DNA of 63,999 nucleotides, filler included, from a bacterium (GTDB lineage Bacteria; UBA9089; CG2-30-40-21; SBAY01): the NCBI GenBank assembly GCA_040757115.1. It is 17 parts of 17 records of this genome, joined end to end, with 100 filler letters (N's around TTAATTAATTAA, not from the genome) between each part and the next. Parts side by side here need not be neighbours in the genome. Positions count along the whole stretch, not along the records: positions 11,967 to 15,801 come from JBFLYA010000312.1; 16 more parts are not named here. One strand, given 5' to 3'. Every line of letters starts with the position of its first letter. The stretch's first letter is position 1. Under the pieces are notes generated by a model that did no database searches, was not told the origin of the DNA, and saw only the letters and a list, made by a program, of their open reading frames with translations. Both the position numbers and the translations under genes were made by a program. This document shows, piece after piece, positions 3,909 to 54,811 of the stretch.

Positions 3909-4008
3909 NNNNNNNNNNNNNNNNNNNNNNNNNNNNNNNNNNNNNNNNNNNNTTAATTAATTAANNNNNNNNNNNNNNNNNNNNNNNNNNNNNNNNNNNN
4001 NNNNNNNN
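3909..4008. other. Artificial contig spacer (Ns around TTAATTAATTAA). Same spacer at 7903, 11867, 15802, 19725, 23634, 27500, 31346, 35159, 38969, 42743, 46511, 50269, 54007, 57742, 61466
   Basis: Identical 100-nt linker with stops in all six frames; contig lengths fall steadily from about 3.9 to 3.6 kb. Confidence 0.98.
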
Positions 4009-7769: not shown

Positions 7770-8008
7770 ATAAATATTAAATATTAAATATCAAATATCA
7801 AATATAAATATCAAAATGCAAAATTACAAATCAAATTTCAAATTGGTAATATCTTTGCTTCAAGTATTTTAACGCTGAAAGGGAAGAGATAATTTTTAGT
7901 TGNNNNNNNNNNNNNNNNNNNNNNNNNNNNNNNNNNNNNNNNNNNNTTAATTAATTAANNNNNNNNNNNNNNNNNNNNNNNNNNNNNNNNNNNNNNNNNN
8001 NNCACGAA

Positions 8009-11615: not shown

Positions 11616-12129
11616 TATAGACATCTTTCAGCCTTCAGGAGACAGAAGATATAGCAGTTATTAGTCAAAATTTTACTCAGGGTGGATAAGTAAAAAATCC
11701 AAAATCCCAAGCACCAAATCTCAAATAAGCACCAAATTCCAGTAACCGTTCAGGCTATATATCAAAAGTGTAAGAAAGGGGATAAGGAGATAAGAGTGAT
11801 ATGGAGATAAGATAATAGAAATAGATTGAAATTTATAGAAATAGGTAGAAATTGATTGTGGAAAACNNNNNNNNNNNNNNNNNNNNNNNNNNNNNNNNNN
11901 NNNNNNNNNNTTAATTAATTAANNNNNNNNNNNNNNNNNNNNNNNNNNNNNNNNNNNNNNNNNNNNTAAAAAATTCACTTGTATCCGAACATACTATTTT
12001 TGTGCCTTTTTAGGGATATAAGTCAAGAAAAATATTTTTAAAAAAACTTAATTTTTTACTTGACATTTCACCATAAGACTTTGTGAGCCGCAGACTCATG
12101 CCCGTTTCTCTTAACCTCAACCTTCTCCT

Positions 12130-13553: not shown

Positions 13554-13915
13554 TTGAGTACAACAACATTAAATTGATTAACAAATCTGTCTTCTCTATT
13601 CCTCTGCATCTCTGCAGTGAATTACTATCTGAATGGTTATGATAATTAGAATTGCTGGGAGGTCGCAAAAGTTTGTTGACAAAACGGCGAAATTTTGTTA
13701 GAGTATAACACTGGGTAATTATTTACCCAGGTGAAGTGAAACAGGTAGGCTCAAAGAGCAAGGAAGATTATTTTCTACCTTGCTCCTTGAACCTAACAAT
13801 CATTACCTGTTGTTTCACCTGAAAATAAGGAAGTAGAAAGTAGAGAGTAGAAAGTAAAGAAAACATCACTCCTCACGCCTATCTCCTTACCTCCTACCTT
13901 CTATCTCCTACCACT

Positions 13916-13969
13916 ATTTTCATCCTCCTTTGTGTCCACCCTGTGGACATGGTCGTTTCACCTGAAAAT
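13916..13969 (-). repeat. ~52-nt structured site ATTTTCAGG(A/T)GAAACG..CATG-hairpin-CACAAA..ATGAAAAT (copies at 12079, 14367, 14781, 15675, 21831, 23452, 23603, 31670, 35466, 49480)
   Basis: Conserved frame with a covarying inner stem in about 11 full or partial copies. Confidence 0.8.
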
Positions 13970-14072
13970 AGACTACAGACCATAGACCATAGACTATAGA
14001 CCAAGGAACCGATGAAAAGCAAGTTTATTTCCCCTTAACAAAGGGGGTGAGGGGGTTGTATTCCCCTCTTGA

Positions 14073-14286
14073 GACTTATCGTTACCCACAAGTCCAAATA
14101 TAGTTAATTGACAATTATCAATTAGCCATTATCAATTCACAATTAATATTTGATGTTGACAAAATTAACAAATAATGGTCAATTGTAAATTGTCAATTGT
14201 TAATTATTGGGGGCTACATATCTCTGTTATTTCGCAGTACTTCCCCTCAAAAATCTTCCCTCTCAAAATGTGGGTAACGATAAGTC
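14073..14286. mobile_element. MITE with GACTTATCGTTACCCACA TIRs inserted in a CCCCTCTTGAGAGGGG hairpin (partial inverted copy about 32010-32147)
   Basis: Perfect 18-bp TIR, TTGA duplicated on both sides, internal ACAATTG-type heptamers. Confidence 0.8.
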
Positions 14287-14560
14287 TTGAGAGGGGCGTA
14301 GAGGTGTGTTATATTTCACCTGAAAATGTTCATAAGTTGTTGTAATTGTTTGATTTACAAAACTACATTTTCATCGTCATTTGTGCCCTGCAAGGGCATA
14401 AGCGTTTCACCTGAAAATATCCGCAGATTTCGCAGAGGACACAGATTTTTAATTTTTTATCTCCCCCACTGAAAATAAGTGTCAGTGATTAGTCTCAGTG
14501 TCAGTTAAGGAATTCAATCTTTCTTCACTGACACTGATACTGTTCACTAACACTGGATGT

Positions 14561-14781
14561 TATAGTAGTTATTAGTCAAATTTTTACTCAGAGTGGATAA
14601 GGAAAAAATCCCAAATCCCAAGCACCAAATCTCAAATAAGCACCAAATTTCAAGTAATAAATACCAAACTATGGGGGTAATGTTTTGAATTTTGGTCATT
14701 CGAATTTGTTTGGAATTTGGAATTTGTGATTTGGAATTTCAGAGCCATATCTATGTCAAATTTCGATTAATAAGTGCTATA
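14561..14781. mobile_element. TATAGC-ended MITE filled with CAAATTC/GGAATTT heptamers (copies at 11650, 38845, 54816-55064)
   Basis: Imperfect ~24-bp TIR TATAG(C/T)AGTTATTAGTCAAA / TTTCGATTAATAAGTGCTATA; TA termini as in IS630-type insertions. Confidence 0.75.
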
Positions 14782-14864
14782 TTTTCATCTCCCTTTGTGT
14801 CCCGCAGGGACATGCGGGTTTCACCATAAATGGCTGAATAGTGATAATAGTGGAGGTGAGATGA

Positions 14865-15413: not shown

Positions 15414-15901
15414 TTGTAAAATCCTTTACCGCAGAGACGCAGAGAAACAGAGAAGAAAATATCTTTTTTTCGTGTTTTTCGGTATTTAAAAGGGCTTAAA
15501 AACAGTTAGTCGAAAGTAAGTATTAAAAGATTGATAAACAACGAAAGACTCGAAATGCACAAAAAAAGGGAATTTCTCTCTCTGGTGAATAGATTTTAAT
15601 TTTTTCTCTGCGTCTCTGTGGCATCTTGCGGTGAACGGTTACAAGAATTCCCGAATCCCGAAATCCGAACCCCGATTTTTAGGAGAAACGGTCATGAGTC
15701 TGCGACTCACAAAGTCTTATGGTGAAATGTCAAGTAAAAAATTAAGTTTTTTTAAAAATATTTTTCTTGACTTATATCCCTAAAAAGGCACAAAAATAGT
15801 ANNNNNNNNNNNNNNNNNNNNNNNNNNNNNNNNNNNNNNNNNNNNTTAATTAATTAANNNNNNNNNNNNNNNNNNNNNNNNNNNNNNNNNNNNNNNNNNN
15901 N

Positions 15902-21816: not shown

Positions 21817-22027
21817 TGAGTGAAAAGTATGGAGAAACGCTCATGAGCCTGCGACTCACAAAGGATGATGAAAATTAATGGGAGAGAGATTGGAGTCATT
21901 GGTCATTAGTCAATGACCAATGACCAGTGACCAAAAGGAGATAAGCGTGAGGAATGATGTTTTCTTTACTTTTTACTTTCTACTCTCTACTTTCTACTTC
22001 CTTATTTTCAGGAAAAAGGGAGGATAA

Positions 22028-23152
22028 ATGAAATCAAGAGGTAAAACAATGAAAAAACCTTCTATTCCAGAATTTAGTAATCAAGATAAAGAAAAACTAA
22101 ATAACTATCGAAAACAAATTGACGAACTTGATAACCAGATTCTGGACATATTAAATAAACGAATAAAGATTGCCCAACAGATAGGGAAATTTAAAAGAGA
22201 AAGAGAAATCGAGGCTTACCAACCAGACCGCGAAAGGGAAATCTACGAGAGATTATGTGAAAAGAACAAAGGTTTATTCCCAAATAAAGCCCTGAAAGCC
22301 ATTTATCGTGAAATTATGTCTGCCTCTTTATCCTGGGAAGAGACCCTAAAAATAGCCTACCTTGGTCCTGAGGCAACATTTACTCATCAAGCCGCTCTGG
22401 AGAAATTTGGTTCTTCCTGTGAGTATATCCCCAAAAAAACTATTTCAGAGATATTTGATGAGGTAGAAAGTGGTCGGGCGAATTATGGTGTCGTCCCGAT
22501 AGAGAATTCATCTGAAGGCGTAGTAACTCATACACTGGATATGTTTATCGATTCCGAATTGAAAATATGTGCCGAGATTATATTAAAAATCTCCCATAAT
22601 CTACTCTCAAATACCCATCTTGAAGATATTAAACGAGTTTATTATCATTCACAGTCCTTTGCCCAGTCAAGAATCTGGCTTGAAAATAATCTTCCTGACG
22701 CCGAGTATATTGAGGTTTCTAGCACGGCTGAGGCGGCAAAAAGAGCCTCTCTTGAAAAAACCTCAGCCGCTATTGCCAGTCAATTAGCAGTCTCTATCTA
22801 TAACTTAAATATCGTCATTAAAGGCATTGAGGCTGGAAAAGAAAATTATACCCGATTTCTGGTTATCGGAAGAGAAATATCTGCTCCAACCTCTAATGAT
22901 AAAACCTCTATCCTTTTTTCCATAAAAGATAGGGTTGGTGCCTTACATGATATGTTAATTCCATTTGCCAAATATAAGATTAACTTGACCAAGATTGAAT
23001 CTCGACCTTCAGGAAAACAACCCTGGGAATATATCTTTTTCTTAGATTTACAAGGACATATCAAGGATAAAAATGTTCAGCAGGCATTAGAGGAACTAAA
23101 GGACCTATGTTTGGTTCTTAAACTCTTAGGCTCGTATCCGGTAGGAGAATAG
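22028..23152 (+). CDS. pheA: Chorismate mutase/prephenate dehydratase
   Basis: RKQIDELD, AYLGPEATFT, PIENSSEG, NYTRF, IESRPS. Confidence 0.95.
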   Translation: MKSRGKTMKKPSIPEFSNQDKEKLNNYRKQIDELDNQILDILNKRIKIAQQIGKFKREREIEAYQPDREREIYERLCEKNKGLFPNKALKAIYREIMSASLSWEETLKIAYLGPEATFTHQAALEKFGSSCEYIPKKTISEIFDEVESGRANYGVVPIENSSEGVVTHTLDMFIDSELKICAEIILKISHNLLSNTHLEDIKRVYYHSQSFAQSRIWLENNLPDAEYIEVSSTAEAAKRASLEKTSAAIASQLAVSIYNLNIVIKGIEAGKENYTRFLVIGREISAPTSNDKTSILFSIKDRVGALHDMLIPFAKYKINLTKIESRPSGKQPWEYIFFLDLQGHIKDKNVQQALEELKDLCLVLKLLGSYPVGE

Positions 23153-31598: not shown

Positions 31599-32311
31599 AG
31601 GAATGGGAATTTGAGAAAGATGGTGGGGCAGACCTTGCGAGGTCTGCCCCCAGAAGCCATCTACACGGGGAGTGGGCACAAACGGGGATGAAAATGGGTT
31701 TGATAGTTTGATGGTTTAATGGTTCAAGTGAAATCAGGCTGAAGCCTGCGGCTACCAGCCTTCCCGAATCCCGAGTCCCGAGTCCCGATTTTCAGGAGAA
31801 TAGCACGCTGATGACGCGGATGTTGCGGATATTTCGCGGATAAAAAATATGTAACCGTTCACCGCAGAGACGCAGAGAAAAACACACCCCTAACCCCTCT
31901 CAAGAGGGGAATATAACCCCCTAACCCCCTTTGTTAAGGGGGAATATTTGCTTCTTATTCGTGTGCATTCGTGTTGACAAAAAGGCAAAAACTTTATAGA
32001 ATTGATATAATTAACAATTGACAATTTACAATTAACAATTGACCATTATTTGTTAATTTTGTCAACATCAAATATTAATTGTGAATTGATAATGGCTAAT
32101 TGATAATTGTCAATTGACTATATTTGGACTTGTGGGTAACGATAAGCTCTCAAGAGGGGAACAACCCCCTAACCCCCTTTGTTAAGGGGGAATATGCGGG
32201 CGGGATGCTGAAGTCGAGCAACGCAGGCTAAAGCCTGTGGCTGCCAGCCTTCCCGAGTCCCGAACCCCGAGTCCCGAGTCCCGATTTTCAGGCGAAAGGA
32301 GGTAAAAACCA

Positions 32312-35281: not shown

Positions 35282-35466
35282 TTGAAAATAAAATTAAAAA
35301 ATTAATTATTAGTAGTGGTAGTGGTAGTGGTAGTGGTAGTGATGTGGAGAATGTGGGTAACTCCAAAGGAGTTATCCAAGCGATTGTGGGTAAGTTGTGG
35401 ACAGCTTTGCTGTCCATCAACTTATCCACATGAGCGTCAATTGCGTCACTATCCACATCTTTCCAC
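35282..35466 (-). other. DnaA-box cluster with trinucleotide repeats and an AT-rich tract (oriC-like architecture)
   Basis: Exact TTATCCACA at 35422-35430 plus about five near-matches; (GTAGTG)n run at 35311-35341; AT tract at 35282-35310. Confidence 0.45.
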
Positions 35467-35965
35467 TTTGTGCCCACTCCCTGTAGGCATGAGCGTTTCT
35501 CCTGAAAAATGAATTTAAAACTACGAAGAACACGAAGATTATCATTTATATTTTTGGGTTATTATCTTCGTCTTTCTTTGTGTTTTTCGTGTTTCTCCAC
35601 CAAATGACTACGGATTACTAAAAAATAAAATTTTACTTGACAATTTGTCAAATATATGCTATATAAATTAAAGAGAAACCTTTTGGATAAAATGAGAATG
35701 GAAGTAAGTGCCTACGAGTTAGAAAGTGAACTAAAGTTGAAGGTGGATAACTTTAGATTTTTAAGTGGTGACTAAATGCAAGACTAAATCTTTGCTTATA
35801 ACCTTTCCAAATTTAGGCACTTTAAGTATTCGTAACCACAATTTCATTGATAATCAACGCTCGATTCCTGAACCTGTCAGGAACAGGTTTTATCCGAAAG
35901 TGTTCCAATATTTAAGGAGGGTGAATAAAATAATATTAAAAACCTGGGGAGGAGGGGATATTAAT

Positions 35966-49315: not shown

Positions 49316-49708
49316 AGAGAGGGAAGCGGCTTGCTTTCTTTACTCTCTACTTCCTATTTTCAGGAGAAATGAGGATGAAAATAGTAGGTAGGATATAGAA
49401 GGTAGGAGGGAAGGAGATAGGCGTAAGGAGTAATGTTTTCTTTACTTTCTACTTTCTACTCTCTACTTTCTACTTTCTTATTTTCAGGAGAACGCCCATG
49501 AGTCTGCGACTCACAAATGACGATGAAAATAGTAGGTAGGAGATAGAAGGTGGGAGATAGGGAGATAAGCGTGAGGAGTGGTGTTTTCTTTAGTTTCTAC
49601 TCTCTACTTTCTACTCTCTACTTCCTATTTTCAGGAGAATCTAAAGTCAAATGTTACAGACCACTATTTTGGGCTAATAACTGCTATATGGCAAAATAGA
49701 GGTGAACA

Positions 49709-54734: not shown

Positions 54735-54811
54735 TGGCGCGCCTGAGAGGATTCGAACCTCCAACCTTCGGATTCGTAGTCCGCGACTCTGTCCAGTTGA
54801 GCTACAGGCGC
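54735..54811 (-). tRNA. tRNA-Arg(ACG)
   Basis: GCGCCTGTAGCTCAACTGGACAGAGTCGCGGA-CTACGAA-TCCGAAGGTTGGAGGTTCGAATCCTCTCAGGCGCGCCA: cloverleaf with encoded CCA. Confidence 0.95.

Follow-up and report, generated by a model that had tools for sequence, protein, structure and literature searches.

The window analysed here, a 63,999-nt stretch of DNA from the draft genome GCA_040757115.1 (G000; 4.32 Mb in 462 contigs, 36.8% G+C), contains several copies of a hairpin-bearing unit of about 52 nt lying between blocks of repeat DNA, which a sequence-only reading had taken for the site of a new cassette system. The window consists of 17 contigs of 2,434-3,908 nt each, set out in order of decreasing length, with stretches of N enclosing a TTAATTAATTAA linker between one contig and the next (3909-4008, 7903-8002, 11867-11966, 15802-15901 and onward every ~3.7-3.9 kb). 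Because the linkers join separate contigs, any feature spanning one is an artefact and arrays are real only inside single contigs; the linkers also turn up as a 40-copy 'repeat' (D1) in a repeat search of the window. The region flagged for study, 13812-14418, lies inside one contig (11967-15801).

Read on the minus strand, this region opens with the right end (ATTTTCAGGTGAAA) of an upstream element (14405..14418; 16-mer match at 14403-14418, 0 mismatches), which forms the first half of junction 1 (14367-14418; 67.8 bits with the covariance model described below). The second half of the junction is the left end of a first module, M1 (14367..14404), composed of CG..TATG, a hairpin TGCCCT/AGGGCA, CACAAATGACG and ATGAAAAT, as seen in the sequence and in the covariance-model match. 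The M1 interior (14328..14366) consists of a tail of 39 nt that is related to the final bases at the right end of an insertion sequence (IS; ..ATTACAAC..TTA....AC), as judged by eye against the IS right-end tails on G000 contigs C90, C130, C156 and C267, and the M1 right end (ATTTTCAGGTGAAATA; 16-mer, 2 mismatches) occupies 14312..14327. Directly after it comes an unrelated inverted-repeat element of ~290 nt at about 14015-14311 (arms ..CTTGAGACTTATCGTTACCCAC / GTGGGTAACGATAAGTCTTGAG..), which breaks the chain. The right end of a partial upstream module (13956..13969; 16-mer match at 13954-13969, 0 mismatches) then provides the first half of junction 2 (13916-13969, 67.6 bits), followed by the left end of a second module, M2 (13916..13955; hairpin TGTCCAC/GTGGACA, CACAAAGGAGG and ATGAAAAT, from sequence and fold), and by the M2 interior (13827..13915), which folds into an imperfect long hairpin with heptamer-repeat arms and ATTTTCA and TGAAAAT at its foot. 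The M2 right end (13811..13826; 16-mer, 1 mismatch) closes the array, with unique DNA beyond.

The repeat is abundant in the window and in the genome. With up to two mismatches allowed, the 16-mer ATTTTCAGGWGAAACG matches the window 12 times; 100 shuffles averaged 0.17 matches, and none reached 12. This core occurs 258 times genome-wide in G000. A strict pattern running from the right core to ATGAAAAT finds 158 units in the genome, 140 of them 51-56 nt long, and a covariance model built from 96 junction copies gives 11 window matches at E<=1, eight of these at E<1e-5, in line with the count of about 11 copies made by the sequence-only reading.

Pairing was assessed in an alignment of 99 of the 103 distinct junctions from G000, G001 (of the same genus) and G003 (of the same family); four over-long or doubtful junctions were dropped, and three spurious rows, which count against pairing, were kept. 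For the whole structure, 94.6% of cells are paired compared with 83.7% after shuffling (none of 500 shuffles reached the observed value), and pairing falls to 21.8-46.2% of cells when the partners are slid. In the inner helix, 93% of cells are paired and five of the seven pairs show changes on both sides, with at least seven different inner stems in this lineage; 47 further distinct hairpins from metagenomes are paired in 252 of 279 cells. These data bear out the claim that the inner stem varies with its pairing kept, with the qualification that the junction copies represent a handful of amplified lineages, so that independent covariation events are few. The outer arms ATTTTCA/TGAAAAT, also said to pair, are indeed complementary (95-96% of cells) but nearly invariant, with a change on both sides in none of the seven pairs, and covariation therefore gives the outer helix no support. 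In Rfam, which the sequence-only reading had suggested searching, only a tRNA gene (54738-54811, minus strand) reaches the gathering threshold across the whole window, and a local E-value scan of 13600-14700 gave microRNA-like noise of 18-27 bits, the best match being 27 bits against a threshold of 85.

The 52-nt unit is not a single site but a joint, in which the right end (..ATTTTCAGGRGAAA) of one non-coding element meets the hairpin-bearing left end of the next. We conclude this from the edges of the arrays, from the linkage of hairpin and interior, and from the linkage of a base variant. At the left edge of an array the shared sequence starts at (A)GGAGAAACG with unrelated DNA before it, and at the right edge it stops at ATTTTCAGGRGAA(A), after which a spacer that varies leads to a start codon. 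Hairpin type, together with the bases that precede ATGAAAAT, travels with the interior downstream, and the stem TGAGCC..GGCTCA followed by AAAGGGCAATGAAAAT has the same interior after every listed copy. The A/G variant in AGGRGAA, for its part, tracks the preceding interior family (chi-square 43.0, 13 df, p=4.6e-5) and is independent of the downstream hairpin type (p=0.70), p values that are indicative only, because the copies are not independent.

An element thus delimited begins with CG-NN-CATG, a hairpin of 5-7 bp and variable sequence, and CACAAAGG-NNN-ATGAAAAT, continues through 40-350 nt of non-coding interior, in many cases a long, imperfect hairpin of heptamer repeats, and ends in ATTTTCAGG-R-GAAA. 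G000 has 157 complete elements of 90-410 nt, mostly 120-170 nt, in chains of up to 5-6 modules that are all head-to-tail, with a single orientation within each array; seven junctions genome-wide are without a hairpin. Many interior families are present, some of them mosaic, as where the left part GGGAGA.. is combined with a right arm ..TTCGCT in 14 copies and with ..GTCCCG in nine. The blocks between the units, earlier called cargo, are non-coding repeat DNA and not genes: across 197 sites the longest open reading frame (ORF) starting from ATGAAAAT has 88 codons and the median is 13.

Several other readings of these joints were tried and rejected. The length of 88 codons rules out ATGAAAAT as the start of a transposase ORF, and a MITE (miniature inverted-repeat transposable element) duplicating TA/AT within the palindromic TGAAAATTTTCA was set aside because no interior-less TGAAAAT.ATTTTCAGG joint was found (two patterns gave 2 + 2 unrelated matches). 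A junction serving as a mini-ORF or in translational coupling was likewise dropped, since the frames differ between hairpin types (by eye); in the metagenomic modules the upstream ATG is in frame and open in only one of 14 ORF-bearing cases.

We then considered where the elements sit relative to genes. After 89 of the 394 exact ATTTTCAGG sites, an ORF of at least 80 codons follows at Shine-Dalgarno spacing, the start codon lying mostly 4-8 nt past AGGRG; of 5,971 AGGRGA sites that lack the ATTTTC prefix, taken as a comparison, 798 precede such an ORF. Junctions with a next gene within 600 nt are oriented with it in 81 cases and opposed in nine, and only three of 127 junctions fall inside ORFs. 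In the window, the array between hprK and pheA opens at 21829..21875 (plus strand; 41.6 bits; Pfam flanks) with a left end preceded by non-repeat DNA and GGAGAAA, and the right end of its last module (22004..22019, plus strand; 16-mer) stands before pheA (ORF at 22028, Pfam). Another right end (32284..32299, plus strand; 16-mer) lies directly upstream of fba (ORF 32312, Pfam). The sequence-only reading had placed half-sites just before the ribosome-binding sites (RBS) of these two genes; the positions and the genes are correct, but the half-sites do not precede the RBS, as their AGGAG is the RBS.

Mobility is evident from ~540 kb of G001 compared with G000, in which the flanking genes are 96-99% identical and the modules show presence/absence polymorphism at C441, C21, C162, C150, C405 and C452. 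The empty sites carry a single GGAGA(A)(A) (CCAGGAGAAGAT, TTCAGGAGATAC, GAAGGAGAAATA, AAAGGAGAAAAA and ATGGAGAAAAT), and the filled alleles carry one to three modules with this motif at both joints. At C150, the empty G000 allele reads ..CCAGGAGAAGATACC..ATG, and G001 has two modules there, with AGCAGAA at the left and ATTTTCAGGAGAA-GATACC..ATG at the right. The five empty sites indicate sequence-specific insertion without a long target duplication, as in IS110/IS1111 elements, and the GGAGA(A)(A) of every empty site is the gene's own Shine-Dalgarno sequence. In this genus, then, the target is the Shine-Dalgarno sequence, and the element end serves 89 genes as RBS. Module sets at orthologous loci differ between G000 and G001: the hprK-pheA spacer, ~10 nt in G003, is ~200 nt of modules in both, in different sets. 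What was described as arrays of sites and cargo can accordingly be retained as site-specific insertion of mobile modules, though the five stretches listed lie on five different contigs. The same comparison revealed other polymorphic MITE families at C389, C166, C9, C5, C133 and C429, which have classical terminal inverted repeats (e.g. GTAACCGTTCAGG..), 8-12-bp target duplications and, in many cases, heptamer-repeat arms.

It is conceivable, though we think it unlikely, that the modules now spread and shuffle mainly through the host's homologous recombination, through gene conversion or through replication slippage among the near-identical joints, of which there are more than 150, with an IS as no more than an inactive ancestor. 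The mosaic interiors fit such a process, as does the filled site at C441, where the core has a further tandem copy of 12 nt. So do some 15 of 36 orthologous gene starts, at which G000 and G001 share an identical ATTTTCAGGRGAA-spacer-ATG core and differ, by eye, in the module family just upstream. Against it, an insertion into a virgin site has just 6-8 nt (GGAGAA) in common with the element, too short a stretch for RecA-type recombination, and the strong bias of orientation with the downstream gene also speaks for another mechanism. Homologous recombination at the joints nevertheless probably adds to the shuffling of modules.

The position of the modules raises a second alternative, namely that they are kept chiefly as host-selected structured RNA of 5´ untranslated regions (UTRs) and intercistronic regions, acting as stabiliser or processing hairpins with an exposed RBS, and that mobility is incidental, in the manner of Neisseria REP2 or the REP (repetitive extragenic palindromic) repeats of E. 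coli. The modules do lie in sense orientation before genes and inside operons such as hprK-pheA, their right end is the RBS of many ORFs, and the whole M2 module folds better as RNA (minimum free energy -55.3, z -3.65) than as DNA (z -1.33), and in 104 of 157 interiors the fold of the sense strand is better than that of the antisense. REP2 repeats, according to part of the published account, similarly supply genes with an upstream promoter, RBS and ATG (PMC3184786). At orthologous loci the modules nonetheless differ between two genomes of one genus, which argues against a locus-specific function, no Rfam family other than the tRNA reaches its gathering threshold, and promoter-like sites are not enriched (7 against 4.9 +/- 1.9 expected). 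The wobble counts in the stems, from which we had tried to read the strand of the hairpin, show an excess of A.C over G.T in G000 (27 vs 12 among distinct hairpins) and G001 (25 vs 5) that vanishes in the metagenomic set (5 vs 7), and no strand conclusion was drawn. On balance, host selection for structured RNA appears very unlikely as the main reason for their persistence.

The family was then followed into other genomes. Covariance model R1, built only from junctions of this lineage, was run on 12 species genomes of the order and gave at least 150 matches each in G000 and G001, 29 in G003 and 11 diverged ones in G004; of the remaining genomes, four have one match each and four have none. The exact left-end pattern occurs in three of 25 genomes of the phylum and, in the metagenome search that had been recommended, in 113 contig stretches of 33-62% G+C whose proteins are 26-65% (median 38%) identical to those of G000. 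The family thus reaches far past this lineage, and its ends are kept almost base for base across these organisms, which is a further argument against spread by host recombination. Among species genomes, 18 stretches match a junction 22-mer: five from one metagenome-assembled genome record are true junctions, L012 scores 40.6 bits, and the rest, at no more than 30 bits, may be chance. Viral contigs gave no match to the junction 22-mer and none to a 20-mer of the non-coding block described below.

The metagenomic copies differ from those of this genus in their flanks. Their left flank is usually nATGAAA|CG.. and their right end ..ATTTTCAG-RTGAAA; ATTTTCA is found within 350 nt in 47 of 86 distinct copies, and in 17 of these 47 an ORF of at least 60 codons has its start within 25 nt of ATTTTCA, mostly at that RTG. 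In L205, position 1 of the Epimerase profile aligns at residue 3 of the ORF. These relatives therefore occupy the start codon and provide a new one.

The same ends also bracket an autonomous partner. In L180 (with its duplicates L236 and L251), L173, L247 and L226, an ORF beginning ..GLDVHK.. follows the left end, and in L173, L247 and L226 this is the N-terminus of a homologous transposase. The L180 ORF has 315 codons, starts ~60 nt past the left-end motif and matches PF01548 (105.2 bits, profile positions 1-152 of 155) and PF02371 (50 bits), and the right end ATTTTCAGATGAAA lies 1509 nt after the left end; R1 scores 65.1 bits (E 9e-14) at the L180 left junction. In G000, the protein encoded on contig C90 (L268) shares 65% identity with the L180 transposase over 292 aa, with matches to PF01548 (92.7 bits, positions 25-153 only) and PF02371 (50.8 bits), and the transposase gene is followed by a non-coding block, ..ATTTTCAGGAGAAA, one module and a gene. 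The last ~40 nt of this IS recur in short modules, for example on C156 and at 14328-14366 of the window. Contigs C130 and C267 each have another IS 3´ end ~80 nt from their start, and G001 contig C572 starts inside the same IS and continues through the block and the right end into three modules; from these ends we take the IS to be multi-copy and to break the assembly. The shattered assembly is explained in this way, with the IS and the modules sitting at contig ends.

Both proteins have the DEDD domain and the G--P----SG motif by which the IS110/IS1111 family is recognised, the latter as GMSPGNNESAG just before a run of nine A residues. The autonomous IS measures about 1.6-1.9 kb, and the modules share both its ends and have no transposase, as MITEs do; judged by these ends, the modules are 90-410-nt MITE-like internal-deletion derivatives of an IS110/IS1111-family IS. 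The claim of a new cassette system without a named family accordingly does not stand, since the ends match those of an IS around a DEDD transposase. Of the 'folded recombination site', the junction as a site of recombination and the structural constraint on the hairpin are upheld.

The A9 run (GGTAAAAAAAAAG) lies right after the SAG motif in both L268 and L180, whose proteins are only 65% identical. Past it, the C-terminal ~96 residues are in the -1 frame, and in both the match to PF02371 goes no further than profile position 55-56 of 87. At this run there may be programmed frameshifting or transcriptional slippage.

A link to an enzyme of another kind was also considered, and mobilisation as single-stranded DNA by an HUH Y1 transposase (in elements such as IS200/IS605-derived palindrome-associated transposable elements or a system like REP and its REP-associated tyrosine transposase, RAYT), or by an integron integrase acting on a new folded site, would suit the insertion beside a fixed short sequence without a classical target-site duplication, the subterminal hairpin and the target-mimicking right end. 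The genome also has seven PF01797 matches and several integron-integrase-like ORFs. Neither enzyme is linked to the modules, however. No junction lies within 4 kb of any of the seven Y1 genes (one isolated core-like 13-mer occurs near C24), and among 31 relatives PF01797 does not co-occur with the elements as expected of IS200/IS605 derivatives: it is found in 23 irrespective of elements, and only a fragment of 28 bits is present in the carrier G003, which has 13-29 junctions. Around the RAYT-like gene are inverted repeats of its own with GTAG heads, and the intI on C22 adjoins canonical attC cassettes with AAC/GTT cores; the ends of the modules bracket an IS110-family gene instead. This proposal is largely refuted already, and we consider it extremely improbable. 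The statement that the repeat is neither attC nor GTAG-REP is confirmed by the different look of both elsewhere in the genome.

The integron on C22 (6245-9300; L138) is canonical. Its integron-integrase-like gene is in two parts, an N-terminal ORF (PF13495) and a C-terminal one (PF00589); the cassettes beside it are GC-richer and have at their borders attC-like sites of ~130 nt with ..TCTAAC / GTTAGC.. cores, and similar split integrase ORFs occur on C423, C223, C251 and C20. On C430 (L136:2324-2909), a 154-aa Y1 transposase (PF01797, 56 bits) lies between 18-29-nt inverted repeats with a GTAG-headed hairpin and looks like a RAYT with its own REP, unrelated to the modules. On C119 (L061:1459-3312, minus strand), a 617-aa ORF matches Y1_Tnp (147 bits) at residues 484-604 only, its N-terminal 480 residues having no Pfam match, and may be a fusion or have a mis-called start.

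The 3´ non-coding region of the IS suggests how the target is chosen. This region is ~215 nt long in L180 and ~340 nt in G000, and the two can be aligned only in one ~105-nt block, which is far better conserved than the rest and is present once per genome assembly. The block holds two segments of 9-10 nt that equal the junction sequence: in L180 the segments are AAGGTGAAAC and GCAGATGAAAT and the junctions CAGGTGAAACG (left) and CAGATGAAAGG (right), and in G000 and G001 the segments are AAGGAGAAAC and GCAGGAGAAAT and the junctions CAGGAGAAACG. Segments and ends therefore change together between the IS lineages (GGTGAAAC/CAGATGAAA vs GGAGAAAC/CAGGAGAAA), a concerted change that spread by host recombination does not account for. 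According to parts of a published study, the long non-coding region downstream of the transposase gene (tnp) in IS1111-type elements gives rise to a seekRNA of 82-96 nt that has short stretches matching the target, and cargo lying between IS ends is mobilised in trans (PMC11187229). Because those elements carry the seekRNA in the same place, we read the block as a candidate guide RNA gene, and the joint change of segments and ends fits guidance by a seekRNA or bridge RNA. The left-end motif ACAAAGG-NNN-ATG also recurs in the block, as ACAAAGGAATG, in both IS lineages, and could be a further donor-matching or protein-binding element.

These observations suggest the following course of events. 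A transposase encoded by the IS would act in trans on the mini-elements, with a small RNA made from the ~105-nt block guiding the recombination and circular intermediates presumably forming on the way. In the metagenomic relatives the target would be ATGAAA at gene starts, and the right end would supply a new RTG-AAA start codon. In the genus studied here the guide would have been retargeted from ATGAAA to the Shine-Dalgarno sequence: guide segments and ends both read GGAGAAA, so that the elements, oriented with the gene, would insert at the Shine-Dalgarno sequence and restore it by their right end. Since the right end together with the GAAA core equals the target, each insertion would regenerate the target, giving rise to head-to-tail chains. 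The left-end hairpin might be a donor element that is read by its structure, or part of the tnp 5´ UTR.

A number of points weigh against this account. In none of the carriers does the assembly contain a transposase gene that is demonstrably intact, which also favours host recombination as the present cause of spread; the C90 copy is without its left end and the first ~24 DEDD profile positions, the G001 copy is cut by the contig end, and both assembled copies need a -1 shift at the conserved A9 run for their C-terminal part. The C90 copy abuts an IS66 fragment (C90:31020-31416, L268:2018-2410, minus strand; PF03050 profile positions 227-283 of 284, C-terminal). At E<=1e-20, none of the 24 phylum genomes besides G000 gave a homologue of the transposase, G003 and G004 with their 29 and 11 junctions included. 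Only two lineages show guide and site changing in step, L180 on one side and G000, together with the near-identical copy in G001, on the other. The two segments both match one and the same DNA strand, with no second-strand match found, and published seekRNAs, in the part of the account covered here, have one match to each strand (PMC11187229); moreover, the assignment of donor and target segments suggested by solitary metagenomic MITEs is reversed in L180. The model gives no reason for the covariation of the left-end hairpin, and part of the module swapping at orthologous loci could be homologous recombination at the 14-52-nt conserved joints. Lastly, the sequencing runs that contain the stretch are two groundwater DNA runs of one study, with no RNA run listed. 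Contigs of these two runs have many joints at the repeats, none readable as a precise excision, since the repeats blur the joints, and the summed depths, which are not a copy number, reach up to ~180x the ~300 of the unique parts.

Taking both sides together, we consider it likely that the units are tandem mini-elements derived from an IS110/IS1111-type IS, mobilised in trans under RNA guidance and landing on and rebuilding the RBS. The repeat is real, structured and mobile, and is probably a very large RBS-targeting expansion of MITEs from such an IS. A broader reading can be put forward only tentatively: that a natural IS110/IS1111 lineage aims its guide at the translation start and was reprogrammed from ATGAAA to GGAGAAA by matched changes of guide and ends, that the guide-less mini-elements act as self-stacking, RBS-rebuilding modules remodelling the 5´ UTRs and intercistronic spacers of ~3% of genes, and that the covarying hairpin is a structure-read donor element of a kind undescribed for the family.

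Other copies lie elsewhere in the window. In the array upstream of ORF 49709, a complete right-end/left-end junction (49480..49530, plus strand; 67.0 bits with the covariance model) is accompanied by a hairpin-less one (ATTTTCAGGAGAAATGAGGATGAAAAT; 49356..49382, plus strand; 30.1 bits). A left-end junction lies at a contig end (23451..23497, plus strand; 45.8 bits), and a variant junction (ATTTTTAGGAGAAACG..hairpin..TATGGTGAAAT) near another (15675..15728, plus strand; 43.2 bits). Two further junction copies on the minus strand have diverged (14781..14831, 44.9 bits; 35459..35509, 37.2 bits and a 16-mer match).

Read in this way, the apparent cassette system becomes a concrete and testable case for seekRNA or bridge RNA in uncultivated groundwater bacteria. 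It would offer a natural example of a guide and its site changing together, ATGAAA vs GGAGAAA, and one of mobilisation in trans on a large scale, with ~157 modules in a 4.3-Mb genome. The tandem arrays find a simple explanation in a right end that regenerates the target, and an element that survives by replacing the start codon or RBS where it landed bears on the evolution of operon spacers and 5´ UTRs. For engineering, it is relevant to which natural IS110-family systems with short, well-defined targets are chosen.

Among known systems, the closest are the IS1111/IS110 elements ISEc11, ISKpn4, ISPa11 and IS621, with which the IS described here shares, as far as portions of the published account extend (PMC11187229), a DEDD transposase with PF01548 and PF02371, a long non-coding region after tnp with a conserved ~100-nt block and short segments identical to the insertion site, inverted repeats that are short and subterminal (here TGAAAAT/ATTTTCA), and sequence-specific insertion with only a short core common to both joints. 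In contrast to those elements, which in the same portions target REP sequences, attC or transposon ends, the target here is a translation-initiation signal (ATGAAA/GGAGAAA), and the guide is a candidate RNA. The right end that rebuilds the target signal, the covarying hairpin in the left end, the two guide-like segments on one strand and the tnp that needs a -1 shift at A9 also set it apart.

Neisseria REP2 and the Borrelia inverted repeats resemble the modules in lying immediately upstream of many genes and in bringing an RBS (and ATG) and internal stem-loops, as described in part of PMC3184786, where REP2 has no known transposase, described target specificity or tandem chains; judged on the motif alone, there is no sequence relationship. 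The bacterial interspersed mosaic elements of E. coli and the REP/REPIN-RAYT systems (PMC2817692, PMC3116915) are likewise high-copy intergenic hairpins with covarying stems, in mosaic arrays that include further short motifs, but REP has a GTAG/CGTC head, alternating orientation and a Y1 RAYT, whereas the modules are head-to-tail, have CATG and CACAAAG beside the hairpin and no GTAG head, and their link is to a DEDD transposase. As in integron cassettes, a folded, imperfectly palindromic site punctuates arrays and insertion regenerates the site; unlike them, the units are non-coding, the junction consensus contains no RYYYAAC/GTTRRRY cores, and the arrays lie away from intI, dispersed before genes. 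In Nostoc, the small dispersed repeats (SDR) and nested MITEs that were a subject of Elhai et al. in 2008 are said to include very small hairpin repeats inside other repeats and inside heptamer tracts, and reportedly exist in forms with and without the small hairpin, in other hosts and with sequences different from the modules; we know of no reported link between them and IS110.

The nearest counterpart of the modules themselves is MITEPpu9, a MITE of the IS110-family ISPpu9 of Pseudomonas putida that forms tandem copies and minicircles (PMC12288879). Like the modules it is non-autonomous, is flanked by the end boxes of its IS, occurs beside the IS or alone and in tandem duplicates, and is thought to move by means of the transposase in trans. 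As far as sections of that account go (PMC12288879), MITEPpu9 has eight copies, carries a small RNA gene and targets a REP sequence, whereas the genome described here has ~157 complete modules of many interior families, which target the RBS and form chains of up to 5-6.

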